DNA of 64,000 nt from an uncultured Candidatus Saccharibacteria bacterium (GTDB taxonomy: Bacteria > Patescibacteriota > Saccharimonadia > Saccharimonadales > 2-12-FULL-41-12): NCBI GenBank assembly GCA_964521095.1, contig CAZFPJ010000002.1, positions 85,108 through 149,107 of the forward strand. The letters are read 5' to 3'. Every line of letters begins with the position of its first letter. Within the stretch, counting starts at the first letter, position 1. The notes under the pieces were generated by a model. The model made no database searches. It had not been told where the DNA came from and worked only from the letters and a program-made list of their open reading frames with translations. The position numbers and the translations under genes were made by a program. Below are positions 4,388 through 60,967 of the stretch, in pieces.

Positions 4388-5680
4388 TTAGCCTCGTTGC
4401 AGGGCATCGATAGGGTCTATGCGTGAGGCGCGTCGAGCAGGGAAGAAAGATACTGCTATGCCAACGGCAATCATGAATAAGATCATGCTACCGATGAGCC
4501 AAGCTGGGGTCGAGAATAAGTCGAAAGATTGAGTAACCCCCCTACTCCGGGCAGATTGATTCATCAGTAGGTTTAGTATGTTGCCATTAATGATGGCCAA
4601 GATTATCCCAACTACTGCGCCGGCTATAGACAGCAAGATTGCCTCTAAGATGAAGAGCTTCCTTATGTCGCGGTTTCTGCCCCCGAGAGCCATCATCAGG
4701 CCGATTTCTTTTGTGCGCTCTAACAGAGATATGGTTAGCGTGTTAAACATGCCCAAAACTGAGACTACCATGCCAATGCTACCAAATCCGACTAATATGA
4801 TGGTAAAGATTTTGAAAATCTGGTTAATCTGGGCCAGCGTGTCTATGGGGGAGTCTGTCTGGTAGCCTAGGCTCTCTACTTGTTTACGAATACTCTGTAC
4901 ATTGGTTGTGTCATCGGCAACCACTTTGATTTGAGAGTAGTATTTGACGCCAGCTACTTGCAATAGTCCGGCGGGCATAAAAATCTCGCCACCACTTCCG
5001 GAGTCTATTACCCCAACGATAGTAAGTTCTTTTTTGAGACTATCTTGCCCGCTAGGTAGGCCTTTGAGTGGTATTTTTACCGTAATTTTTTTGTCGATTG
5101 CTTTATTAGCGTCGTTGATACCTATAGAACTCAATAAGGATTTGTTAACCACAATTACATCGGAGTCTTGGTTGGTCAGTAATCGCCCAGATGACAGCAG
5201 AAGGTTGCTAAGGTCTTGATAGTTTTTGTCTACAGCGTAGACGACAGTGTCGGACTCGCTATTTTGGTAGCTGATACTACCCGGATAAGAATAGGATTTG
5301 CCCACTCGTTCTACATGGGCTAGGCCATTTAGCTTATTGGCTAGGCTTTCGTCCAGGTTTAGGATACGGGAATTAGGAGTTCTGATATCGATTGATTTTA
5401 TAGAGCGGTCTCCGATAACTTGCCTGGTAACTAAGTCGCGCAGGCCAAGCCCAAACGAAAATAAGAAAAAGATGGCTCCGATGCCAATAATGATGCCAAA
5501 GAGCGTTAAGAATGTCCGGAGTTTTTTGTTTACAAGATTACGCCAGGCAATGTCTAGGAGTATAAAAAACGAAATTGATTTGTGGTTTTTGTTAAGTCCA
5601 AAAATTTTAACAAAAAAAGGCAACAGAACTTCCTTCGTTTTGTGAGTATATTTTTTGATAGGATTAATAATATTATTCAT
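4388..5680 (-). CDS. ABC transporter permease, MacB/FtsX family
   Basis: 430 aa: N-terminal TM, ~230-aa extracytoplasmic domain, C-terminal 3-TM FtsX-type domain. It overlaps the upstream ATPase gene by 4 nt. Confidence 0.85.
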   Translation of the reverse strand: MNNIINPIKKYTHKTKEVLLPFFVKIFGLNKNHKSISFFILLDIAWRNLVNKKLRTFLTLFGIIIGIGAIFFLFSFGLGLRDLVTRQVIGDRSIKSIDIRTPNSRILNLDESLANKLNGLAHVERVGKSYSYPGSISYQNSESDTVVYAVDKNYQDLSNLLLSSGRLLTNQDSDVIVVNKSLLSSIGINDANKAIDKKITVKIPLKGLPSGQDSLKKELTIVGVIDSGSGGEIFMPAGLLQVAGVKYYSQIKVVADDTTNVQSIRKQVESLGYQTDSPIDTLAQINQIFKIFTIILVGFGSIGMVVSVLGMFNTLTISLLERTKEIGLMMALGGRNRDIRKLFILEAILLSIAGAVVGIILAIINGNILNLLMNQSARSRGVTQSFDLFSTPAWLIGSMILFMIAVGIAVSFFPARRASRIDPIDALQRG

Positions 5681-6468
5681 GGCTTGGCTTTCCTGGGGTG
5701 TTTTGAGGTAGAGAATTCGTTTAACCTGGTCTTCATGCTGTCCATCAGTGAGTTTGTGATTTGGGTTATGCTCTCATCTTTGGATGATTCTACGGTGCCA
5801 TCTTGCACGTGCAGTAGATTATCTGCCAGGGGCAAGTACTCCATGTTGTGAGTGACCAGGATGATTGTGCGCAGGGAGTCGCTGTGAGCCTTGCGCAAGA
5901 GATCCATGACTTTATCGCCATTGGTTGTATCCAGACTTCCGGTGGGTTCGTCGGCAATTATAAACAAGGGGTCATTGACTAGTGCTCTAGCAACGGCAAC
6001 TCTTTGTTGCTCGCCTCCAGACATTAGTGTTGGGTATTTTTTGGCGTAACTCTGCATGTCGATTCTTTCTAGCGATATCATGGCCATGTCTTTGGCAAGC
6101 GATTTGTTATAGCCCAAAAAGTATAGGGGCAGAGCAACATTTTCTAAGACATTAAGGCTAGAAACCCAAAAGTTTTGCTGGTAGATTATGCCGATTCGAC
6201 TGGCTCTAAACCGAGCGAGGTCATCTGCTTTTAGTTTGTAGATATCTTGGTCTTTGAAGGTTATGTTGCCTTGCGTAGGCTTTTGAAGTCCGGTGATAAT
6301 GTTTAGAATTGTTGACTTACCAGAACCGCTGGCACCGTAAATAACATTAAACGAGTTATGAGCCATCTCGAAACTAACATTTTTTAGAACATCTATAGTT
6401 TCTTCACCAACCTTAAAACTTTGGCTAATATTGCTGGCTTGTATTAGTGCCTCACCCTGCTTTTGCAT
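5677..6468 (-). CDS. ABC transporter ATP-binding protein (MacB/LolD-like)
   Basis: Walker [10 protein letters not shown], signature [15 protein letters not shown], Walker [12 protein letters not shown]. It starts 2 nt after the stop of the giant gene. Confidence 0.9.
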
Positions 6469-6470
6469 GC

Positions 6471-9400
6471 CTAGAACCCAAACACTTTCTGGAGAGAGTT
6501 AAGGATGATTGTTAGCACACTGTCTGAAGCCCGCCCAATTATGGCAGATTGAGGTTCGCCCTGTCCGACATTGCCAGATTTATCTTTTGATAGTGGCTGA
6601 ATGCTGTAGACCCGTGATGTTGGCAGGTCGGAGACAATAACTATGTGTTCTGTGCCAAGGGCTACATCTTCGCTGGTTTTGTTGTTAAATACAGTTGTGT
6701 TAGATCCTTCGCCATAGGCTACTTGGCTAGAGGATGGTTCGTCGGTCTTCCAGGAGACTACTACTTGTCCACGAGCTTCTGCACCGGTGCCACGGATAGA
6801 TGTTTCGATTTGTACTTCACTAATTTTTGGTGGCCGGGTGTCGAGGGCCGTTTTGAATTGTTGGCGGTCTGATTCGGCTAGGTTGCCACTGCCATCACGA
6901 CTTTGGGCAATCAAGAAATATTCGCTATTATCTTCTAGGCCTCGCAAGATGAGTTTGTGATCGGTGGTTAGTTGAGAATCTTGAACATCGATACCAGCCT
7001 GGCCAACCTTGCCATAAGTTACCGTTGAAGTAGCAGGTACATTTGTAGTCCAGCTGACTTCTTGGGTGCTGGTTGGCTCTCCTGCTATTGGTTGGAATCG
7101 TAGGTCTAGTATCTTTGGTCGAGCAGGGGTGGTGAAGGAGGAAACACTGCCATCGTAAGAGTTGTCTTCTTTATCGTAGGCGACTAGTTTGTAGAAGTAT
7201 TTTGAGCCGTCCTCTAGGCCATCTATGCTAACTTCATAGGTTGACTCATAAGGCGAGGTGTTGATAGATTTTATGCCTCCAAAGCTTTCGCCTTTGCCGT
7301 ATAACACATCAATGCGACTAGCGTTTTTGCTGGTAAATCTAATAGAAGCATTTGCGAGCCCAACCTTTGAGGTGGTGATTTCTTTGAGCGATGGGGCAGG
7401 GGCAGTTTGGAAAGTAAATTCTTGGCTAGTACCTGTGTTGCCATCTTCGTCTGTCCACTTGGCAACATAGTAGTAGGTAGTGCCTGCGCTTAGGTTGTTT
7501 AGGTCTATTTGGTGCGAACTTACTTGGTCAGACGAGGCGATCTCTGAAGAACTATATTTTCCGCTGGCTGTCCCAATAGCTATCTTTGAGTCACTTGATC
7601 GGTCGGTACTCCAGCTGATGGTCGCTTTGCGGGTAGTTATGTTGGATACTTTTGGATCTGCAACCAGGGTTGCTGGAGAGGTGAATTTACCAGTTGGTAT
7701 CTGGTTGACTGTGGTGCTGTTAGACCCACAGTTGTTAGTGCTGTCACAAGCCGTTACTCGATAGTAGTATCTTTGCTGACTTAGGCCGGCGTCTATGTAG
7801 GTAGTGCTAGAGCTACTACCTACAAACGAGAAGCTGACATTGTTTGTAGAGCGGTATACCTTATAGCTAGATATGCCAGCACCGGTATAAGTTGGTGCAT
7901 CCCAAGTTAGAGCTAGGCGCCAGTTGTTGGTGGCCTTAATAGACACATCGACGATATCGGTATTTAGGGGTATACCTGGAGACGGAGTGTTGGCCGTAAA
8001 GTTGACGGACGAATAGCTACTGTAGTTGATGTTGTTGGACTCGTCTTTTGCAACAACATAGAGCGTATTAAGTCCAGGCTGGGTTGCATATGGCCCCGCC
8101 CCTAAACTAGTCGTGCCTCCGCTAGTAAAGGTACAGTTATTGGCGGACGGAAGGATGTTAACGGTGTAGCAATAGGTTATATTGTTGGCGTTACCAACAA
8201 AAGTAGCCGGCTGGTTCCAACTGAAAGAGAACGAGTTGGTGGTGTTAGTAGTTGGATTTGCTGTAACATTTTGCGGTTCGCTTGGGGCTCCAGAAGTATT
8301 GATTTTTATAGCTGCAGTTACATAAGAAGCCGTCACATTACCTGCTTGGTCCCATGTTCTGAAGTAGACGGTATTTACTCCCTCAGTCAGATTAGCGTGA
8401 TCCGGTGTCGTAATAGTTTGGTATGACCCGTCATTAGACAGCAGGTCATTCATGTCACCCGTACCGCTATGACTATCTCCGTACCAAACAGTGTTGCCGA
8501 TTTTATATTGGAGGCCGGCAAGCCCAGAGTTGGGGTCATCAGGTGCTCCACCGCCAGATGTTGGCCAAGTTAGCGTGACATCTTTGGTGTTAATAAACCC
8601 AGATGGCGCAGTAATGTAACTAGGGTTAGTTGGCGGGGTGTTGTCGAAGCGGAAGTGGAACTGAGTTGTGCCAGTAGTTACATTGCCAGCATTATCCATA
8701 GCTTTGATAGTGAGGTAATACGGTGAGTTGCCGGTTGCTAGAGCTGTTTGTATAGTGCCAGCAGTTGCTGTGTCTATGCTGTTAGTCTCTATTAGGAATT
8801 GACATCGTCCGCCATTATCGGCTGGACTGTTCCCCAGAATACCTTTTGTAGTAACCGGGTCGGCGGAGCCATCGGTTCCAAGGTAGAGGCAGTAGCCCTT
8901 TATGCCAGAGTCTGTATCGGTGCCTGCTGTCCAGGAGAAATATGGTGAGCTACCATTGGTCCAAGCATTTTGCGCCAAGCTAGAACCGCCAGACGCCTTG
9001 AGTGCTGTTATGTTGCTAGCGTTTGTGGCTGGCTCTACTAAATCAGAAGTTGAGGCTAGGGTTACGCTGTTTAGGGTTACGCGTTGGTCGCCATTGCTCT
9101 TTAATACAGCCTGCCACTTTATGCCACTAAGGGTGACAGGGAAGGTACTCATATTTGCGTCGGCTACCGATATGGGGTTGGCCTCGGTCGTGTTATTGGA
9201 ATCTGCCCAACTGCTACCATTCCAGAATTTCCAGGTGACCCCGTTATCGGCAGACAGTCGGTAAGTGATGTCGCCACCGTTAGCGGTTTCGTTGGCTGTA
9301 AGGTTATCCCAGTGCCAGACGCCGTTGATACGAACTGGGTTGTTGAGGGTTATGGTTTGGGCAGTTGTGCTGTATGGCTTGCTGTTGAAGCTCGGCCTTG

Positions 9401-21313: not shown

Positions 21314-22015
21314 ATGGAAGAGAGGCTAAAACAAAAGTTATCTGCCTACAAAACTCCCCCCGAGGCGGTAAAGGTGGTTAGTAATACGGCTATAGTTTTT
21401 TTGGTTGGGATATCTGGTGCTGGCAAAGATACTGTGCGCAAAGAGCTACTTGCTACTGGCGATTTTCATCACATTGTTTCGCATACTACCAGGCCTCCAC
21501 GCCATAATCATGGTGTTTTAGAACAAGATGGGGTGGATTATCATTTTGTAGATGTTAAAAAAGTCGAAAACATGCTCGATAATAAGGAATTTATCGAGGC
21601 GAAAATATTTAGCAATAATGTTTATGGAACTAGTATTGCAGAAATTCAGGCTGTTCACGACGCCGAGTTAATTGCCATCAGCGATCTTGAGATACAAGGA
21701 GTTGCAGAATATATGGCTATTAGTCCGGCGGTTAAACCAATTTTTTTACTACCTCCAAGTTATGAAATTTGGCAGGAGAGGCTCAAAAGGCGATACCACG
21801 ACAACGACATAGACCCAATAGATATTAGTAGGCGACTCCAAACTGCAAAGGTAGAACTGCAAGAAGCATTGGAAAAGGATTATTTTTATTTTGTGATCAA
21901 TAACGATTTAGAAACATCAATTCAGCAGGTAGAAGCAATAGCCAACGGAACTCTCGCTAAAGAGTCTACCAAAGAAGCCAGAACTCTCGCCAAAGACCTG
22001 CTTGCAAAACTCTAG
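21314..22015 (+). CDS. gmk: guanylate kinase-like protein
   Basis: P-loop GISGAGKDT and SHTTRPPR..DGVDYHFV motifs. Has an N-terminal extension relative to typical Gmk. Confidence 0.7.
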   Translation: MEERLKQKLSAYKTPPEAVKVVSNTAIVFLVGISGAGKDTVRKELLATGDFHHIVSHTTRPPRHNHGVLEQDGVDYHFVDVKKVENMLDNKEFIEAKIFSNNVYGTSIAEIQAVHDAELIAISDLEIQGVAEYMAISPAVKPIFLLPPSYEIWQERLKRRYHDNDIDPIDISRRLQTAKVELQEALEKDYFYFVINNDLETSIQQVEAIANGTLAKESTKEARTLAKDLLAKL

Positions 22016-37243: not shown

Positions 37244-37857
37244 CTTTTTGGCTCCTCGCTAGAGGTTTTTGATATGTATGTGAACGGATTATTTTTTGAG
37301 AACAAAGCTTTGATTTGAATTGTACAAGGGTAAGCGCTATTAGTATCTTCTTCTGATCCAGCCGTACTGCAAGATATAGATTCTATGTCGGCTTTGTCGA
37401 ATATTTTATTTTGGGGATCTTGAAGGTTGAGCTGTAGTTGGGTAGCAGAGTCAACATCTTTGGCAGACCCCTTCAAGGAGAGGGCTCCTTGAAGCTTGTC
37501 TACCTGGAATCCTGTGAGAGTTGCGTTAACGGGTATAGATGACCCAAGCTGAGTCAGTAGTTTTGAAAACAATATTTCTTTTGATAGGACCTGAACAACT
37601 AGCTTGGTATTGTTGGACAGTTCTTCAACTTGCTTTTGGGTGTCTTCTATCTTGCGAGACTGAAGCTCGGCTTGTGTAGTTTCCGCGTTTTTGGTTTCTG
37701 CTTTCACACTTTGCCTTAATACAAAGTAACCCCCACCTATGATGCCCAGTGTTATGAGTAGAGAGATGCAAGAAGCGATAGTCCAGCGCACCATAGTGGT
37801 GTTGCGTCGTCCATATATAATCTCTTGTTTGCAGTCAGCAGGAAGGAGGTTGATCAT
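37240..37857 (-). CDS. pilN: type IV pilus assembly protein PilN
   Basis: MINLLP N-terminus, a single TM and a coiled region. 4-nt overlap with pilM. Confidence 0.7.
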   Translation of the reverse strand: MINLLPADCKQEIIYGRRNTTMVRWTIASCISLLITLGIIGGGYFVLRQSVKAETKNAETTQAELQSRKIEDTQKQVEELSNNTKLVVQVLSKEILFSKLLTQLGSSIPVNATLTGFQVDKLQGALSLKGSAKDVDSATQLQLNLQDPQNKIFDKADIESISCSTAGSEEDTNSAYPCTIQIKALFSKNNPFTYISKTSSEEPKR

Positions 37858-38936
37858 TTAAATATCTCCTTAGCGTTGACGAGTGATAGCCCAGAGGATG
37901 TTACATACATAGATTTTTCGGCGCCTTTTGGAGCTTTGAGTCGTCCCAGGTTAAAGGCTTGCCACGGATCGCTCATACGGACGGGTAGACGCAGGGAGTT
38001 GGTCAGGTAGTCGCTAAGCCCAGGCATATGTGCTCCGCCCCCCATGATTACTATTTGGCCAATTTCTTTATTTTTATTCGAGCGGTCTTCATAATATCTA
38101 ACCATTCTACGAATTTCTTTTATAAGTTTCTCAAGCTCTGGACTCAATGCTTCAGTGATTTCTTTCTGCTTTTTGCTTTTTCCGAGGCCGTATTTGGTTT
38201 TTATTACATAACCCTCTCCTGTAGTTACCCCAAGCTTCTTGGCAATTAGGCTCGTAAATATATCGCCTCCACAAGATGCAGTACTGGTTACTATAACGGT
38301 TTTATCGTGAATTGTTATGTCAGCCGACAGGGAACCAAAATCTATTAATACTGCCGGAATATCGGTGCTTAAATCTTGATAGTCAAACAGTCTGCCGGCT
38401 GCCCCAGTGCTGGTATCAAATGCGACTGCTTCAAGACCCAAGACATTTAGTAGGTCCATGTGGCTATCTATAATTTTTTTTGGGGCACCAACGGCTAGTA
38501 TTTCTACGCTACCTTTATTTTTGCCGATAACAGAGTAGTCTACATATAGCTCTTCTAGTGACATAGGTATGTATTGCTGTAGTTCCGAGAGAACGGCCTC
38601 GTCCAGTTCTTTACTCGATAGAGACGGCAAGGTCATTGTTTTTGCAAAAGTGTGGGCAGCGGGCACAGAGGCAACTACTCTACGAGTAGTAATATGACCC
38701 TCTAGCCCGTCTTTAAATAATTGCTTAATCGATTTTGCAATGCTTTCGACATCGATGATTACGCCATCTTTGATAGCCTTGCTGTCAAAGCGAACAACTC
38801 CATATCCAATGATTGAGCGCTTTTTTTTGCCGGGGGAGTTCTCGACCTGCATAACTTTGACCGTATTGAACCCAACATCCAGTCCGAAGACGGGCTTGTC
38901 TTTAAACAGTAGTGATGAGTTTTGTGTTCCACCCAT
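37854..38936 (-). CDS. pilM: type IV pilus assembly ATPase-fold protein PilM
   Basis: 360 aa with an actin-like fold (FGLDVGFNTVKV, LIDFGSLSADITI, IVIMGGGA). Confidence 0.85.
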   Translation of the reverse strand: MGGTQNSSLLFKDKPVFGLDVGFNTVKVMQVENSPGKKKRSIIGYGVVRFDSKAIKDGVIIDVESIAKSIKQLFKDGLEGHITTRRVVASVPAAHTFAKTMTLPSLSSKELDEAVLSELQQYIPMSLEELYVDYSVIGKNKGSVEILAVGAPKKIIDSHMDLLNVLGLEAVAFDTSTGAAGRLFDYQDLSTDIPAVLIDFGSLSADITIHDKTVIVTSTASCGGDIFTSLIAKKLGVTTGEGYVIKTKYGLGKSKKQKEITEALSPELEKLIKEIRRMVRYYEDRSNKNKEIGQIVIMGGGAHMPGLSDYLTNSLRLPVRMSDPWQAFNLGRLKAPKGAEKSMYVTSSGLSLVNAKEIFK

Positions 38937-55512: not shown

Positions 55513-55938
55513 TTATAGGTAAGGTTTGATGTCTGGTATTACGCTTTCAAAAAACTCTCTATCTTTTGGGTGGGTCAAATAGCCTATAACTTTATCTATC
55601 TCAACCCAGATTGCCTCGGGGTTGTCGGGGTCTTCTGGTATAAGTTCTGTTTGCTTGGTTTTATATAAAAATAAGGTTATCTCTTTTATCTCGCTGTCGT
55701 CTAAAGGCCCTTCGTCCAAGGGTATTCTGTGTCTTTGATATGTTCCTAGCTCGCATAGCAAGGCTAGCTCTGTAAGGCCAGTCTCTTCTTGTATTTCACG
55801 CCTTGAAGCTTGTTGCAAATCTTCACCTGGGTCAACACCACCTTTGGGTAGTGACCATGAGCGACCATGCTGACTAACTACCACAATTTTATTGTCTGAC
55901 CCAATGATGACCCCGCCAGCTGTTTTTCTAATTTTCAT
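55513..55938 (-). CDS. NUDIX hydrolase
   Basis: Nudix box GGVDPGEDLQQASRREIQEETGL. Confidence 0.85.
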   Translation of the reverse strand: MKIRKTAGGVIIGSDNKIVVVSQHGRSWSLPKGGVDPGEDLQQASRREIQEETGLTELALLCELGTYQRHRIPLDEGPLDDSEIKEITLFLYKTKQTELIPEDPDNPEAIWVEIDKVIGYLTHPKDREFFESVIPDIKPYL

Positions 55939-56215: not shown

Positions 56216-56292
56216 TGGTACCCCGGGAGGGACTCGAACCCCCGACCTTGACGTTAGAACCGTCTTGCTCTAATCCACTGAGCTACCGGGGC
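56216..56292 (-). tRNA. tRNA-Arg (anticodon UCU)
   Basis: 77 nt: anticodon loop GTTCTAA, T-arm GGGGG-TTCGAGT-CCCTC, encoded CCA. Confidence 0.85.
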
Positions 56293-56311
56293 AAGATACT
56301 AAATATAAGGT

Positions 56312-56386
56312 TGGTGCGGGCGGAGAGAATCGAACTCTCATCACTTGCTTGGAAGGCAGGTATATTAGCCATTATACGACGCCCGC
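56312..56386 (-). tRNA. tRNA-Gly (anticodon UCC)
   Basis: 75 nt: GCGGGCG acceptor, anticodon loop CTTCCAA, T-arm GAGAG-TTCGATT-CTCTC, encoded CCA. Confidence 0.85.
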
Positions 56387-56436: not shown

Positions 56437-57957
56437 CTAGATATCGTGGATTATTTCTATCTTGGCGCCAAGCGAGTTAAAGCGATCGGCCAAGTCCTCG
56501 TAGCCACGGTTGATAGAATAGACATTACGAAGCATCGAAGTGCCTTTAGCAGAGAGCATGCCTATCAGTAGTAGGACTGCTGGCCGGAGGGCAGGGGGCG
56601 AAACTATATCGGCAACACTCCATTTTGTAGGGCCGTCTACATAGGCTCGGTGTGGGTCTGCCAGGGTTACACTAGCACCAAGTTTTCGTAACTCGGTGTA
56701 GTATATAGCTCGCTCTTCATAAGTCCAGTCGTGTATGAGCGTCCTGCCTTTGGCTGTAGCCGCAATCGGCACAAAGTAGGGTAGGTTGTCTATATTGAGG
56801 CCAGGGAAGGGGCGAGCATATATTTTCTCGTCCAGAGCCTTTAGTTTGCCATTGTGTTTGTGGATCGTTATGTCTACGAGATCGGTATAATTGTTATTTG
56901 CCTTGTACGGTTTGCTTGTGTCTATCTGAAGACCCATTTTCTCGAGCTTTAACAGTTCTAGTTCTAAAAATTCTATGGGAGCACGACTTATCTTGATGCT
57001 AGAGTTCGTCGCAACAGCTGCAGCTATAAAAGTCATCGACTCGATGGGGTCTTCGCTAGGATAGTAGGTAATATTTTTCTTGATGTTTTTTACACCCCTT
57101 ACTGTAAGTGTGCTTGTACCTATTCCGTCAATTTTTACCCCTAGTTTTCTTAAAAAATAACAAAGATCCTGCACCATGTAGTTGGCGCTTGCCATTTTTA
57201 TAGTAACTTCGTTGTCTTGTCGAGCGGCCGCCATTAGTATGTTTTCTGTTGTAGTATCTCCCGACTCATACAAAACCACATGTTTTGGTTGTTTTTGTTT
57301 AACAGTAACTTGGTAAAACCCGGTTTTTGCCACAATATCGACTCCAAATTCTTCCAGCGCAAACAAATGTGGTTGCACCGTTCGTTTGCCTAGTTTGCAG
57401 CCTCCTGCATACGGAATCTTAAATTCAGGGAATATGTGCATAAGAGGGCCAAGCATCATGATGACACTACGGGTTTTTCGGGCTGCCACTTTGTCCATTT
57501 TTGACAGATCCAGTTCTTCGGGTGGTTTGATCTCTAGGTCATTATTGGCCATCCATCGCACCTTCACCCCAATGCTAACGAGCACCTCGATTAGGCGGTT
57601 AACCTCTTCGATTCGAGGCATTTTTTTGAGGCGCGTAGTTCCTTTGTTGAGTAGCGCGGCAAAAAGCAAACAAACTGCGGCATTTTTGGAAACTTTGGTT
57701 TCTATAGTTCCAGATAGCTCATGTCCACCTTCTATCCGCAAGCTAACCGCGTCGCTACCGAGGCTAATTATCGGCTTATTGAGAGCATCACTTATGCGTC
57801 CTAAAGTTTCTAGGCTCAGATTTTGCCCACCTTTTTCGATGCGGTTGATAGCGCTTTGGCTGGTACCAATGCGTTTAGCAAGCTCCGCTTGGGTCAGCCC
57901 TCGTTCTTGCCTGATCTGATAAATTAGATTGCCGATCTTTTGGTTTGCTACATTCAT
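56437..57957 (-). CDS. murA: XRE-family HTH domain fused to UDP-N-acetylglucosamine 1-carboxyvinyltransferase (MurA)
   Basis: aa 1-65 carry an XRE HTH (RGLTQAELAKRIGTSQSAINRIEKG). The rest has the MurA/EPSP-synthase fold (GGHELSGTIETKVSKNAA..LLFAALL) and a catalytic-loop Cys (YAGGCKLGKRTV). Confidence 0.85.
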   Translation of the reverse strand: MNVANQKIGNLIYQIRQERGLTQAELAKRIGTSQSAINRIEKGGQNLSLETLGRISDALNKPIISLGSDAVSLRIEGGHELSGTIETKVSKNAAVCLLFAALLNKGTTRLKKMPRIEEVNRLIEVLVSIGVKVRWMANNDLEIKPPEELDLSKMDKVAARKTRSVIMMLGPLMHIFPEFKIPYAGGCKLGKRTVQPHLFALEEFGVDIVAKTGFYQVTVKQKQPKHVVLYESGDTTTENILMAAARQDNEVTIKMASANYMVQDLCYFLRKLGVKIDGIGTSTLTVRGVKNIKKNITYYPSEDPIESMTFIAAAVATNSSIKISRAPIEFLELELLKLEKMGLQIDTSKPYKANNNYTDLVDITIHKHNGKLKALDEKIYARPFPGLNIDNLPYFVPIAATAKGRTLIHDWTYEERAIYYTELRKLGASVTLADPHRAYVDGPTKWSVADIVSPPALRPAVLLLIGMLSAKGTSMLRNVYSINRGYEDLADRFNSLGAKIEIIHDI

Positions 57958-57969
57958 AACCGCAATATT

Positions 57970-57985
57970 ATATCACTCATGATAT
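57970..57985. promoter_or_regulatory. palindrome overlapping the -10 box of HTH-murA (candidate auto-operator)
   Basis: ATATCA-CTCA-TGATAT. On the minus strand, TATAAT ends 9 nt before the ATG. Confidence 0.35.
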
Positions 57986-58033
57986 GTTGATGCACTATTT
58001 CATAAAACGGTTTTTAGCAGTTACAATAAATAG

Positions 58034-59314
58034 ATGAGAGATAGCCAGATAGAGCAGTTAATTATTGCAGAAGAAAAACGACAGCGAGAAGGACTAGAGC
58101 TTATACCAAGCGAAAACTATGTAAGCCGAGATGTTCTTGACGCTATGGGGAGCGTGCTCACCAACAAATACTCCGAGGGTTATCCGGGTAAACGGTATTA
58201 TGGTGGTCAGGAAAATACTGACAAGATAGAACAGCTGGCAATTGACAGAGCGAAAGAGTTGTTTGGGGCAGATCATGCTAATGTCCAGCCACATTCTGGA
58301 GCTCCAGCCAACGAGGCCGTCTATAGTGCCTGGCTAGAGCCCGGCGATGTGGTGTTGGCCATGGACTTAAGTCATGGTGGTCATCTAACGCACGGTGCAC
58401 CAGTTACTCGTTCGGCCAAGCTATATAACTTTATTCGTTATAAGATGAAAAATCCCGAGACGGGCCAGATTGACTACGACGAGCTTAGAGAGCTTGCCTT
58501 GCAATATAAACCAAAGATTATCTTGGCTGGATTTAGCGCTTATCCTAGAGAGCTAGATTACGGCAAGTTCGCCGAAATTGGCGACGAAGTAGGGGCTCTA
58601 CTGATGGCAGATATGGCACATATTGCCGGCTTAATTGTCGGAGGTGTTGCAAAGAATCCGTTTGATTATGGCTTTCATGTAATCACCACTACTACACACA
58701 AAACTTTGCGTGGTCCCCGCGGTGGATTAATTTTAAGCAAAGGGACGGTCGGTAACCCTCTCAAAGCCCCCGACAAAACTCTAGAAAATATTCCAACTCT
58801 TATTGACCGAGCAGTCTTCCCCGGCATGCAGGGTGGTCCACACGAGCATGTTATCGGCGCTAAGGCTGTAGCTTTTGGAGAGGCCTTAAAGCCAGAGTTT
58901 AAAGCTTATGCTAGCCAAATAATAAAAAATGCCCAATCTCTGGCTGAGGCGCTACAGGCGCGAGGGTTCAAGCTAGTTACGGGCGGAACTAGTAATCACC
59001 TGATTTTGGCAGATGTACACACTAGCTTTGGTATCGATGGTAACGAAGCAGAAACAGCTTTGGATAAGATTGGTTTAACACTCAATAAAAACGCTATTGC
59101 CGACGATCCTTTGCCTCCTTTTCGGCCAAGCGGAATTCGTCTGGGAACTCCCGCCATCACAACCAGAGGCCTTAAAGAATCTGATATGGAAAAGATAGCC
59201 GACTGGATGAAGCAGGCAATAGAAAATAGATCCAACCCCGAAGAGCTAGAAAAATTAAGAAAAGAAGTCAAAGATTTCGCTTTAAAATTTCCCCTTCCAA
59301 GCGACAAGGTCTAG
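58034..59314 (+). CDS. glyA: serine hydroxymethyltransferase
   Basis: Full-length SHMT with the PLP site TTTTHKTLRGPRGG. Confidence 0.97.
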   Translation: MRDSQIEQLIIAEEKRQREGLELIPSENYVSRDVLDAMGSVLTNKYSEGYPGKRYYGGQENTDKIEQLAIDRAKELFGADHANVQPHSGAPANEAVYSAWLEPGDVVLAMDLSHGGHLTHGAPVTRSAKLYNFIRYKMKNPETGQIDYDELRELALQYKPKIILAGFSAYPRELDYGKFAEIGDEVGALLMADMAHIAGLIVGGVAKNPFDYGFHVITTTTHKTLRGPRGGLILSKGTVGNPLKAPDKTLENIPTLIDRAVFPGMQGGPHEHVIGAKAVAFGEALKPEFKAYASQIIKNAQSLAEALQARGFKLVTGGTSNHLILADVHTSFGIDGNEAETALDKIGLTLNKNAIADDPLPPFRPSGIRLGTPAITTRGLKESDMEKIADWMKQAIENRSNPEELEKLRKEVKDFALKFPLPSDKV

Positions 59315-60336
59315 ATTAGCTCCGGTTCTTGTTCTAATGTAATATCGAATTTCTTTTGTGCCGAGGCAACTATGGCGTCTTTAAAGGCCACCAACGAAGC
59401 CGTGTTTTTGGCTTTTTCGTTGACCAGCACCAGTGGTTGCTTATCCCAAACAGCCATACCGGTATTCGGTTCACGGTAACCTTTTAGTCCAAGATATTCC
59501 ATGATCCAGGCCCCCGAAATTTTTACGGTATCGTCATTTACATCCCAATATACAATGCCTGGATATTGCTCTTTGAGTTCTTCTAGTTGTACGCGAGGTA
59601 TAAACGGATTAGCAAAAAATGATCCACAATTGGCAATAACTTTAGGGTCTGGCAACTTGGCGGACCGAATAGAGATAACTGCTTCTCGGATGTCTTTAGA
59701 GGAAGGGCTGGTGATTTTGTGCTCATTAAAATAATTCTGTACCGAAGCATAAAATGGAGGGGTAGGTGATGTGTTGCTAAGAGTTAGTGTTATTGAAGTA
59801 ATTAAGAATCTGCCACGATCGGTAGTTTTAAATCGGCTAGTCCTGTACCCGAACTCACATTCGACCTTTGGTATGGTTGTCATTTTTTTTGTTTGACGGT
59901 CGTAAGCTTGTACACAAACTAGTATATCGGCAATTTCTCGCCCATAAGCCCCGACATTTTGTACTGGTGTAGCTCCAGCTAGCCCAGGTATTAACGATAA
60001 TTGCTCTATTCCAGACAGCCCTTGCTCTACTGTTTTGGCCACAACTTCATCCCAAACCTCTCCAGCGCCGATAGTTATAAAGGTCGCCCCATCTTGGGGC
60101 TGTAGCTCGACTCCTTTTAGGTTGTTGACTAGTACCAGTCCCGGATAGTCTTTGTCTTGCCAAATAATATTACTGCCTTGCCCAATCATGATAATGTCTG
60201 CGATATTATTGGACTCTGCCCAGTCTATAGCCTTCTGGATTTCATCAAGATTATTAATGGTACACAGATACCGAGCTTTTCCTCCAAGTCGCATGGTGGA
60301 ATGGTCTTTTAGAGATATGTTTTCTTTTAACTCCAT
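59311..60336 (-). CDS. murB: UDP-N-acetylenolpyruvoylglucosamine reductase
   Basis: FAD-binding PCMH domain (MRLGGKA.., GQGSNI) and a MurB C-terminal domain. Confidence 0.9.
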   Translation of the reverse strand: MELKENISLKDHSTMRLGGKARYLCTINNLDEIQKAIDWAESNNIADIIMIGQGSNIIWQDKDYPGLVLVNNLKGVELQPQDGATFITIGAGEVWDEVVAKTVEQGLSGIEQLSLIPGLAGATPVQNVGAYGREIADILVCVQAYDRQTKKMTTIPKVECEFGYRTSRFKTTDRGRFLITSITLTLSNTSPTPPFYASVQNYFNEHKITSPSSKDIREAVISIRSAKLPDPKVIANCGSFFANPFIPRVQLEELKEQYPGIVYWDVNDDTVKISGAWIMEYLGLKGYREPNTGMAVWDKQPLVLVNEKAKNTASLVAFKDAIVASAQKKFDITLEQEPELI

Positions 60337-60433
60337 ACCCTTTTAGTATAACCGAAATGTTTACTTAAAAAACATTGTAGTGCTTATTAAAACGAGTCTT
60401 GCAAAAAGTTCATGAGGGCGTAACATATAAGGT

Positions 60434-60967
60434 ATGAGTCAGAAGAATGAAGAGCCTTACCAGGCACTAGGGGCACGGATCAAGAAGCTACGCGAACAGT
60501 GGCAACAGTCGGTTGTAGAGGTATCTAATACTCTCGAGATTGATGAGTCTACCCTAAGAGCAATTGAACAAGGAAAGACTATGCCTGCAGAGGAGCTACT
60601 CGACTTATTAAGTAGCCACTTCTTGTTAACAGATGAGCAGACCGACGAGCTTAGAGACCTGGCCGATCAATACAACTCTCAAACAGGTGATGCGCTAATG
60701 AGTGGTATCGAAGATATGTTAATGAAACAGATCGTCATGTATCTGCCGGTAGATAGCAAGACTCTTTTTACGGATAGCATGAACGCTACAGTCAACGACC
60801 ATGGCGTAGTCTTGCAGTTTATGCAGAATAGTCCAGATGGTCAGGCATTGCCAGTTAGTAAGGTTGGCATGAGTCGCGAACACGCCGAACGCATGATAAA
60901 AGTTATTCGTTCCACACTAGATCAACATGATCGCTCTAACGACCAAAAAGCTTTACCGCCTCAGTAG
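60434..60967 (+). CDS. XRE-family HTH protein with uncharacterised C-terminal domain
   Basis: N-terminal HTH (LGARIKKLREQWQQSVVEVSNTLEIDESTLRAIEQG). No S24 peptidase motif. Confidence 0.6.
   Translation: MSQKNEEPYQALGARIKKLREQWQQSVVEVSNTLEIDESTLRAIEQGKTMPAEELLDLLSSHFLLTDEQTDELRDLADQYNSQTGDALMSGIEDMLMKQIVMYLPVDSKTLFTDSMNATVNDHGVVLQFMQNSPDGQALPVSKVGMSREHAERMIKVIRSTLDQHDRSNDQKALPPQ

Follow-up and report, generated by a model that had tools for sequence, protein, structure and literature searches.

The stretch of Saccharibacteria DNA analyzed here, 64,000 nucleotides (nt) long and hereafter called the window, carries on its reverse strand a gene in which a MurA enzyme (UDP-N-acetylglucosamine, or UDP-GlcNAc, 1-carboxyvinyltransferase) is joined to an N-terminal helix-turn-helix (HTH) domain of the XRE, or Cro/C1, type. 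Immediately upstream of this HTH-MurA fusion gene lies a palindrome that overlaps the predicted −10 box of the gene, and beyond the palindrome follow glyA, encoding serine hydroxymethyltransferase (SHMT), murB and a gene for a second XRE-type protein of 177 amino acids (aa), referred to below as XRE177. The coordinates are collected in Table 1. An earlier reading of this DNA, made from the letters alone (the sequence-only reading), had picked out the fusion, its palindrome, the divergent glyA and the nearby murB and XRE genes, all of which we find where it had placed them, and had proposed that the enzyme represses its own promoter and perhaps that of glyA.

Table 1. Features of the HTH-MurA locus, in window coordinates
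Feature	Position	Strand	Basis or remark
HTH-MurA fusion gene, 506 aa plus stop	56437..57957	-	open reading frame (ORF) listing, Pfam
XRE/Cro-C1-type HTH domain, aa 12-63	57769..57924	-	Pfam HTH_3, AlphaFold2 (AF2) helices
Flexible linker, about aa 61-70	57748..57777	-	low predicted local distance difference test (pLDDT) score, low identity
MurA (UDP-GlcNAc 1-carboxyvinyltransferase) domain, aa 72-503	56449..57744	-	NCBIfam, phmmer, Foldseek
Predicted operator, 6-N4-6 palindrome ATATCA-N4-TGATAT	57970..57985	.	ends 12 nt before ATG
Fusion-gene core promoter (predicted)	57965..57975	-	extended -10 and alternative -10
Putative glyA promoter, TTCATA-17-TACAAT	57999..58027	+	promoter scan; -10 ends 6 nt before glyA ATG (58034)
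glyA (SHMT)	58034-59314	+	E=4e-160
murB	59311-60336	-	neighbor
177-aa XRE protein (XRE177)	60434-60967	+	HTH_31, 30 bits against cutoff of 27

The ORF of the fusion is uninterrupted over its 506 codons and encodes both Pfam HTH_3 and Pfam EPSP_synthase. The HTH_3 match reaches E=1.5e-17 and 63.8 bits (cutoff 23), and by profile and by fold (Pfam, AF2 and PDB matches) the N-terminal domain is of the XRE/Cro-C1 family. In an AF2 monomer model of the fusion protein, computed with 48 sequences as input, the domain is built from helices at residues 2–18, 23–30, 34–41 and 49–59, and by sequence the nearest solved structures are HipB, C.BclI, SinR and the 434 repressor. The recognition helix comprises residues 32–41, TSQSAINRIE, in which T32, S33, Q34, S35, A36, N38, R39, I40 and E41 are invariant among the aligned Saccharibacteria and Streptomyces sequences. 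The linker that follows has a pLDDT of 55 over residues 61–70, falling below 50 at residues 65–68.

The remainder of the protein is a MurA. EPSP_synthase (PF00275) matches residues 76–491 with E=5e-46, the NCBIfam MurA subfamily model NF006873/PRK09369 scores 329 bits, above its cutoff of 297, and phmmer finds MurA chains in the PDB with E=5e-54. The AF2 model (mean pLDDT 87.6, predicted template-modeling score 0.82) gives the MurA fold with confidence, its sole weak spot being the catalytic loop at residues 186–190, a loop that is mobile in all MurAs. A Foldseek search of the PDB with this model returned MurA structures only, 3swd, 3su9 and 3swg among them, at target-normalized template-modeling (TM) scores of 0.85–0.92, and in none of the structures matched is an HTH present. 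The sequence-only reading held the catalytic cysteine loop to be intact, and this is borne out: the motif YAGGCKLGKRTV is present, with Cys187 encoded at 57397–57399, and alignment to MurA structures shows that K91, N92, R163, C187, R192, D390, R416 and R484, the counterparts of E. coli K22, N23, R91, C115, R120, D305, R371 and R397, are all kept. Among 85 fusion proteins aligned, these eight catalytic and substrate-binding residues are retained in all 82 close fusions, one of them with a C115D replacement. The latter, from a Saccharimonadales metagenome-assembled genome (DATIJT010000003.1; locus L012), carries Asp where the catalytic Cys would be; MurA with C115D is a naturally fosfomycin-resistant yet active variant, as in M. 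tuberculosis. By sequence the enzyme half is thus a member of a divergent MurA clade that looks active, and, at the level of sequence and modeled structure, one polypeptide would unite a domain for DNA binding with an enzyme capable of catalysis.

A frameshift or mis-assembly joining two genes, which the sequence-only reading had named as one way for it to be wrong, can be ruled out, as three independent Logan assemblies (contigs of three sequencing runs) encode the very same protein and hundreds of orthologues have the same length. All 120 of the top 120 homologues (77–100% identity, almost all of 506 aa) contain both HTH_3 and EPSP_synthase. In a genome scan with one genome per species at least 597 loci encode relatives, and among the best 80 of these, which we kept and which span two phyla, about 30 belong to Saccharibacteria (Saccharimonadales and allies, 57–80% identity) and about 50 to Actinomycetota (57–60% identity over residues 7–506). 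The actinomycete carriers include Streptomyces, Nonomuraea, Nocardioides, Brachybacterium, Aeromicrobium and Knoellia. In Saccharibacteria the HTH is 69.6% and the MurA domain 66.8% identical to that of the window, and in Actinomycetota these values are 58.0% and 59.5%, with the linker at about 39% in both groups. The HTH is therefore conserved as well as the enzyme domain and the linker poorly so, and, judged on these comparisons, the fusion is real and old. Two proteins depart from the two-domain layout. One (P0122, 443 aa) groups in our tree with the Saccharibacteria fusions and has a short Lys-rich N-terminus where the HTH would be, and the other (P0128, encoded at 197–1786 of contig L094) has a degenerate N-terminal region that is not an HTH to Pfam, and no operator upstream. 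In both, the DNA-binding module seems to have been lost secondarily, within the HTH-MurA family.

In Streptomyces a single 90%-identity cluster of the fusion has 4337 members, which RefSeq names either "helix-turn-helix domain-containing protein" or "UDP-N-acetylglucosamine 1-carboxyvinyltransferase". The fusion of Streptomyces sp. Qhu-G9 adjoins an aconitase gene, and in S. coelicolor SCO5998, called MurA2, adjoins SCO5999, according to the relevant passage of PMC12161575. From this aconitase synteny, rather than from sequence comparison, the Streptomyces fusion appears to be the orthologue of MurA2 (SCO5998 / sven5810 / vnz_28735). The literature passages on this protein treat it as a second MurA, a BldM-WhiI target and SigB-dependent, and in these passages neither the HTH domain nor the palindrome is mentioned (PMC4125116, PMC11005364, PMC8346170).

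We then turn to the palindrome, ATATCActcaTGATAT, which on the coding strand reads ATATCATGAGTGATAT-AAT, the sequence running up to the fusion gene being ...caacATATCATGAGTGATATAATattgcggttATG. As the sequence-only reading had it, the palindrome lies over the −10 of the gene: its right arm forms an extended −10, TGATATAAT (57975–57967), in which TATAAT (57972–57967) is separated from the ATG by 9 nt. An alternative −10, TAATAT at 57970–57965, is in register with the TAnnnT element of the actinobacterial loci described below. No −35 box is recognizable in this promoter. From the predicted promoter the mRNA of the fusion would be leaderless or have a leader of about 2 nt. The near-leaderless layout noted for this gene is not special to it, since 12 of the 36 long ORFs in the window share it, which makes it a habit of the genome. 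These twelve, glyA and murB included, have a −10-like hexamer 5–9 nt before the start codon (examples are the starts at 21314, 31967, 37854–38936 (-), 49373, 58034, 59311–60336 (-) and 60434), often of the extended type TGnTAnnnT, and many are first genes of operons; a Shine-Dalgarno match was flagged in none of the 12. Leaderless or near-leaderless mRNAs thus seem to be common in the source genome. With one mismatch allowed, the palindrome is unique in the window, where about 0.11 copies are expected, and at least one copy arose in 11 of 100 shuffles of the window. Taken alone the palindrome is weakly significant; its significance comes from conservation.

The 110 nt upstream of each fusion gene were aligned on the start codon and 16-mers were scored out of 10 against AT..CA-N4-TG..AT, with the inner two positions of the arms required to be complementary. 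Of 84 loci, 39 score 10/10, 21 score 9 and 19 score 8. A score of at least 9 is therefore found at 60 of the 84 loci, against P=0.0015 per random 60-nt window from the same loci, and no random window reached 10. The position is likewise fixed, the operator ending 11–13 nt before the start codon in 67 of the 79 loci that score at least 8/10. Conservation of the palindrome where the fusion is conserved, a check that the sequence-only reading had asked for, is thus found, at a fixed place in the core promoter. The consensus is ATAyCA-N4-TGrTAT-AAT in Saccharibacteria and ATCTCA-TATs-TGAGAT-A-nnn-T in Actinomycetota, and the general form in conserved loci is AT[A/C/G]TCA-N4-TGA[T/G/C]AT. In the actinobacterial loci the TAnnnT −10 begins at the last base of the operator, its T/A...T being invariant in 49 of 49, and ends 6–7 nt before the ATG, as is classic for leaderless promoters in actinobacteria. 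Where −35 boxes are recognizable (TTGACA, TTGACT, TTGCAA, TTGnnn) they lie 1–3 nt upstream of the palindrome, with a −35/−10 spacer of 16–18 bp by manual count. In relatives with visible boxes the palindrome therefore occupies the −35/−10 spacer and overlaps the −10, so that a protein bound there would compete with RNA polymerase.

In 739 kb of DNA flanking the related loci there is one other genuine perfect site, located within a coding region of L020, while two further perfect matches are the same operators at loci where the start codon is uncertain. A search of the window with up to two mismatches finds 7 sites where 3.6 are expected, and none of them occupies a promoter register like that of the operator. 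No additional operator that would point to a wider regulon was found in the 64-kb window or in promoters within the 739 kb of related loci. As a separate observation, a second and longer inverted repeat, TTGTTCGCATAGTAGTAGAACAA, is common to several Streptomyces loci (L048, L049, L054, L056, L066, L067, L076, L079), where it sits upstream of the murA2 operator at a variable position about 35–80 nt before the fusion start and close to the start of the divergent gene. It bears no evident likeness to the DmdR1 iron box, the BldM palindrome or the SOS box.

Several lines of evidence connect the operator to the HTH that is fused to the enzyme. The arms vary symmetrically (ATATCA/TGATAT, ATCTCA/TGAGAT, ATAGCA/TGCTAT and AACTCA/TGAGTT), and the variants go with the recognition helix: half-site ATAGCA is paired with helices TTQSAIAR or STQSAIAR, and AACTCA with TSQGAIGR. 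The recognition helix aligns to that of the 434 repressor at an offset of 6, which brings Q34, S35 and R39 onto Q28, Q29 and Q33 of the latter, its base-contacting residues. Three unfused relatives (L087, L090, L091) have no operator, their best scores being 5, 6 and 8 with none in register, and the locus of P0128, the N-terminal region of which Pfam does not recognize as an HTH, has none either. Only the fused HTH is shared by every locus that bears the operator. Conservation, fixed position and covariation thus lead us to predict that the fused HTH binds the palindrome.

Distant members of the family carry this argument further. An exhaustive profile search retrieved full-length fusions down to 33–42% identity, and the DNA of five of these (L085, L088, L089, L092 and L093, with proteins 35–42% identical to that of the window) was examined. 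In L085, L088 and L089 the MurA-like domain shows the changes K22R, R91N/I/P, C115K/P and R120T/P, in E. coli numbering, and in P0131 (L092) and P0169 (L093), read by eye, the Cys loop is absent. All five keep a helix TSQSA(V/I)(A/N)R(I/M)E and an operator at the promoter, which reads TTGACAatATATCATATATGATAT in L085, ATAACATATATGCTAT in L088, TTGCAAtATATCATATAGGATATATAAT in L089, ATATCATATATGATAT in L092 and ATATCAGATATGATATAAT in L093. Identity to the window protein in L085, L088 and L089 is 53% for the HTH as against 35% for the MurA-like domain. As HTH and operator are kept and catalytic residues are lost, the HTH is the selected function in these proteins. In three of the five loci the degenerate fusion stands beside a canonical murA: in L085 (3624–9321) and L088 (2714–8001) it is divergent from a canonical, unfused murA-murB operon, and in L092 (95–6201) from an operon of a hypothetical gene, a Mur ligase and canonical murA. 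In each of these three the operator, of the ATATCA-N4-TGATAT type, lies within the short divergent spacer, and ddl and/or Mur-ligase genes follow downstream of the fusion. By its gene context, a degenerate HTH-MurA in a cluster of peptidoglycan-precursor genes would make sense only as a regulator, and the L085, L088 and L092 proteins look like dedicated regulators of these genes with a MurA-like sensor domain. In L089 the operator is upstream of a NUDIX-nucleotidyltransferase-regulator operon (4735–7554). A NUDIX hydrolase gene is also found just downstream of the fusion in the window, with tRNA-Gly and tRNA-Arg between (55513–55938 (-), 56216–56386 (-)); this neighbor of both fusions may reflect a functional link to nucleotide-sugar metabolism, or coincidence.

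Taking the above together, we read the fusion as a bifunctional MurA that represses its own gene, as the sequence-only reading had proposed, and assign this a probability of about 0.72. The operator on which it rests is conserved, keeps its position and varies in step with the HTH, and from these sequence data DNA binding, dimerization, exclusion of RNA polymerase and the sign of regulation are all inferred. The HTH, on its flexible linker of about 10 aa, would bind the 16-bp palindrome AT[A/C]TCA-N4-TGA[T/G]AT, presumably as a dimer, both half-sites lying on one face of the DNA since their centers are 10 bp apart. Protein on the operator would sterically exclude RNA polymerase from the fusion promoter, and a rise in free MurA would then lower its own synthesis and hold MurA at a set level. 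The enzyme domain might further gate this binding. MurA closes on UDP-GlcNAc, forms a covalent phosphoenolpyruvate (PEP) adduct on its Cys and binds UDP-N-acetylmuramic acid (UDP-MurNAc) tightly, and the transition between the open and closed states of the domain in response to these ligands could modulate operator binding. Such substrate- or product-gated DNA binding is speculative; with it, the protein would be a sensor of flux comparable to BirA or PutA. A sensor role would agree with the degenerate paralogues, which have kept the MurA fold although it no longer serves catalysis.

A number of observations weigh against self-repression by an active MurA. The fusion protein misses the cutoff of the TIGR01072 murA equivalog model, at 312 against 392.7. 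MurA of the canonical type is as a rule a monomer, and the AF2 monomer model revealed no interface for a dimer. In the closest relatives of the window locus (L001, L004, L012, L013, L015) the left half-site is degenerate and the score is 6–8/10, which means either that part of the clade has a relaxed operator or that our scoring is too strict. Part of the conservation of the right arm is promoter conservation, since this arm overlaps the −10, and the covariation of helix and half-site is supportive and not decisive, as it comprises few independent events, perhaps two or three. Finally, murA2 in Streptomyces is already driven by other means, being, in the passages concerned, a BldM-WhiI target shown by footprinting in S. 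venezuelae (PMC4125116) and transcribed from a SigB-dependent promoter as SCO5998 in S. coelicolor (PMC8346170); autoregulation would there be only one layer of murA2 control.

Four other explanations have to be weighed against autorepression. The protein could bind the palindrome and activate its gene, either by remodeling the spacer as MerR does or, the promoter being devoid of a −35, by recruiting RNA polymerase to it. MerR-type activators bind the −35/−10 spacer as well, and the window promoter indeed has no recognizable −35, but the visible spacers measure 16–18 bp against the overlong 19–20 bp typical of MerR targets, and the site overlaps the −10 hexamer itself. XRE-type dimers at such positions (434 or lambda cI/Cro, HipB, SinR) are moreover mainly repressors, which counts against activation and renders it, in our judgment, unlikely. 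Quite unlikely, too, is that the Saccharibacteria protein acts mainly as a UDP-sugar-sensing transcription factor with little or no catalysis while a separate canonical MurA does the chemistry. Such a division of labor would suit the clear degeneracy of the distant members, three of the five of which neighbor a canonical murA, as well as the missed equivalog cutoff and the presence of a second MurA in Streptomyces, as stated in part of PMC12161575. It is at odds with the retention of all eight catalytic residues in the 82 close fusions, with a MurA domain as conserved as the HTH, and with the lack of a second EPSP_synthase gene adjoining the fusion in the Saccharimonadales loci. The lone C115D protein does not help it, as this is a known active, fosfomycin-resistant form.

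The palindrome might also be the site of another factor, XRE177 being the obvious candidate given that the order XRE177 / murB / glyA / HTH-murA is kept in the closer relatives (L001–L015, L021), with the fused HTH serving protein contact, nucleoid tethering or distant genes. XRE177 is unnecessary as the true regulator, as actinobacterial loci and distantly related metagenome contigs without XRE177 and glyA still carry the operator; half-site variants, moreover, follow the fused recognition helix, and the operator is missing when the HTH is absent or degenerate. We regard another factor as very unlikely. An RNA or DNA hairpin, for instance as 5′-untranslated region structure, would likewise explain why symmetric compensatory changes keep the arms complementary, and the SigB-type promoter of S. 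coelicolor, placed further upstream in the passage concerned (PMC8346170), could yield some transcripts that contain the palindrome. The stem, on the other hand, has only 6 pairs, mostly A-T, the sequence folds no better than when shuffled (z=−0.08), and in the minimum-free-energy structure the palindrome is not paired as a hairpin. With the −35 just upstream of the palindrome and the −10 inside or after it, the palindrome also lies upstream of the transcription start. A role as RNA hairpin was rejected on the grounds of folding and promoter position, and a structural role for the palindrome in general is hardly credible.

With autorepression as the preferred reading, its proposed extension to glyA deserves separate comment. 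glyA is the divergent neighbor of the fusion in Saccharimonadales loci L001–L022 and L052, and in the window its putative promoter is back-to-back with the operator, clear of any overlap. The spacing between the glyA and murA start codons ranges from about 56 to 450 bp in relatives, and for this reason the distance from operator to glyA varies, while the operator keeps its 11–13 nt register to murA. Repression of glyA by the fusion, and co-regulation of the two genes, are thus unsupported. On the far side of glyA, XRE177 is transcribed divergently from murB. The spacer between these two contains an inverted repeat, AATGTTT-N7-AAACATT (60356–60376), which is not conserved in the relatives, only promoter-like TTGCA(A/T) and TAACAT boxes recurring there.

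Comparison with known systems would place HTH-MurA among the trigger enzymes BirA, PutA and NadR. E. coli BirA is the classic of this kind and likewise unites an N-terminal HTH with a metabolic enzyme in one polypeptide, its dimer sitting on a palindromic operator that overlaps the promoter from which its pathway genes are transcribed. BirA differs in that its HTH is winged and not of XRE type, in that it controls the bio operon and not its own gene, and in that biotinyl-AMP drives its dimerization; for HTH-MurA, the one target predicted by the present analysis is its own promoter, to which the degenerate relatives add the divergent murA operon. PutA and NadR are also enzymes with an added DNA-binding domain, and they repress genes of their own pathway, with autoregulation in PutA and a switch set by substrate availability. 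PutA has a ribbon-helix-helix domain and a membrane-association switch, and neither of the two acts in cell-wall synthesis. Small XRE autoregulators, among them the best sequence matches of the HTH (434 repressor/Cro, HipB, the controller C proteins of restriction-modification systems and SinR), bind palindromic operators overlapping their own promoters; they dimerize via the HTH or a small C-terminal domain, whereas the HTH in HTH-MurA is partnered by a 435-aa enzyme. Canonical MurA (E. coli, E. cloacae and MurAA/MurAB of Firmicutes) shares the fold and the catalytic residues, the Cys115 loop included, and differs in having no DNA-binding domain and only about 29–35% identity to the fusion. 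Its known regulation is post-translational (ClpCP/ReoM proteolysis, feedback by UDP-MurNAc) and not exerted by the enzyme itself. The closest structural analogue is PtrEPSP-TF, a Populus EPSP (5-enolpyruvylshikimate-3-phosphate) synthase isoform of the sister enolpyruvyl-transferase fold (PF00275) with an extra N-terminal HTH, for which DNA binding and transcriptional activity have been shown experimentally (PMC6941116). It is an independent fusion event: the enzyme is a eukaryotic AroA-type one, the HTH is unrelated, the targets are nuclear phenylpropanoid genes and its own promoter has no operator. In the full-text literature searched we found no description of DNA binding, operator or autoregulation for any HTH-MurA, but only automatic annotations, this plant EPSP-TF and a Pfam survey in which HTH_3 appears under the label "EPSPS-associated domain", with no interpretation given (PMC9394408). 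HTH-MurA is thus known as a database annotation and uncharacterized as a mechanism.

The distribution over two phyla was analyzed with a neighbor-joining tree of the MurA domain (100 bootstraps), comparing actinobacterial loci L024, L027–L049 and L053–L080 with Saccharibacteria loci L001–L023. The actinobacterial fusions are monophyletic (100/100) and nested in Saccharibacteria as sister to L018/L020 (99/100), a subgroup that retains the glyA synteny of Saccharimonadales; Saccharibacteria are monophyletic in 0 of 100 bootstraps. This neighbor-joining result suggests a single transfer, probably from a Saccharibacteria lineage to the ancestor of the Actinomycetota that carry the fusion. Cultivated Saccharibacteria are epibionts of Actinobacteria, and the phylogeny hints at a possible gene transfer from an epibiont lineage into its host phylum. 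A wider view, which we offer tentatively and consider more apt to be wrong than right, is that XRE-MurA constitutes a family of metabolite-gated transcription factors in which opening and closing of the MurA fold in response to UDP-GlcNAc, PEP and UDP-MurNAc sets how far the operator is occupied, the enzyme thereby reading precursor flux and tuning its own synthesis. The catalytically dead paralogues, found in other bacteria of reduced genome that probably belong to the candidate phyla radiation, would on this view serve purely as sensors, with murA-murB, ddl and Mur-ligase operons under their control, and the active form would have moved from Saccharibacteria to the host-phylum ancestor to become the developmentally regulated MurA2 of Streptomyces.

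Little is understood of how transcription is controlled for the first committed step in cell-wall synthesis, the known regulation of MurA being mainly by proteolysis and feedback inhibition. If our reading is correct, a MurA with its own repressor domain would be a direct and self-contained homeostat at the entry point of peptidoglycan synthesis. Two settings make this of interest, the ultra-small Saccharibacteria with their very few regulators and the sporulation- and stress-regulated MurA2 paralogue of Streptomyces. The degenerate relatives, in turn, suggest that the MurA fold may be used as the sensor domain of a regulator, and with it a possible route to UDP-sugar biosensors.

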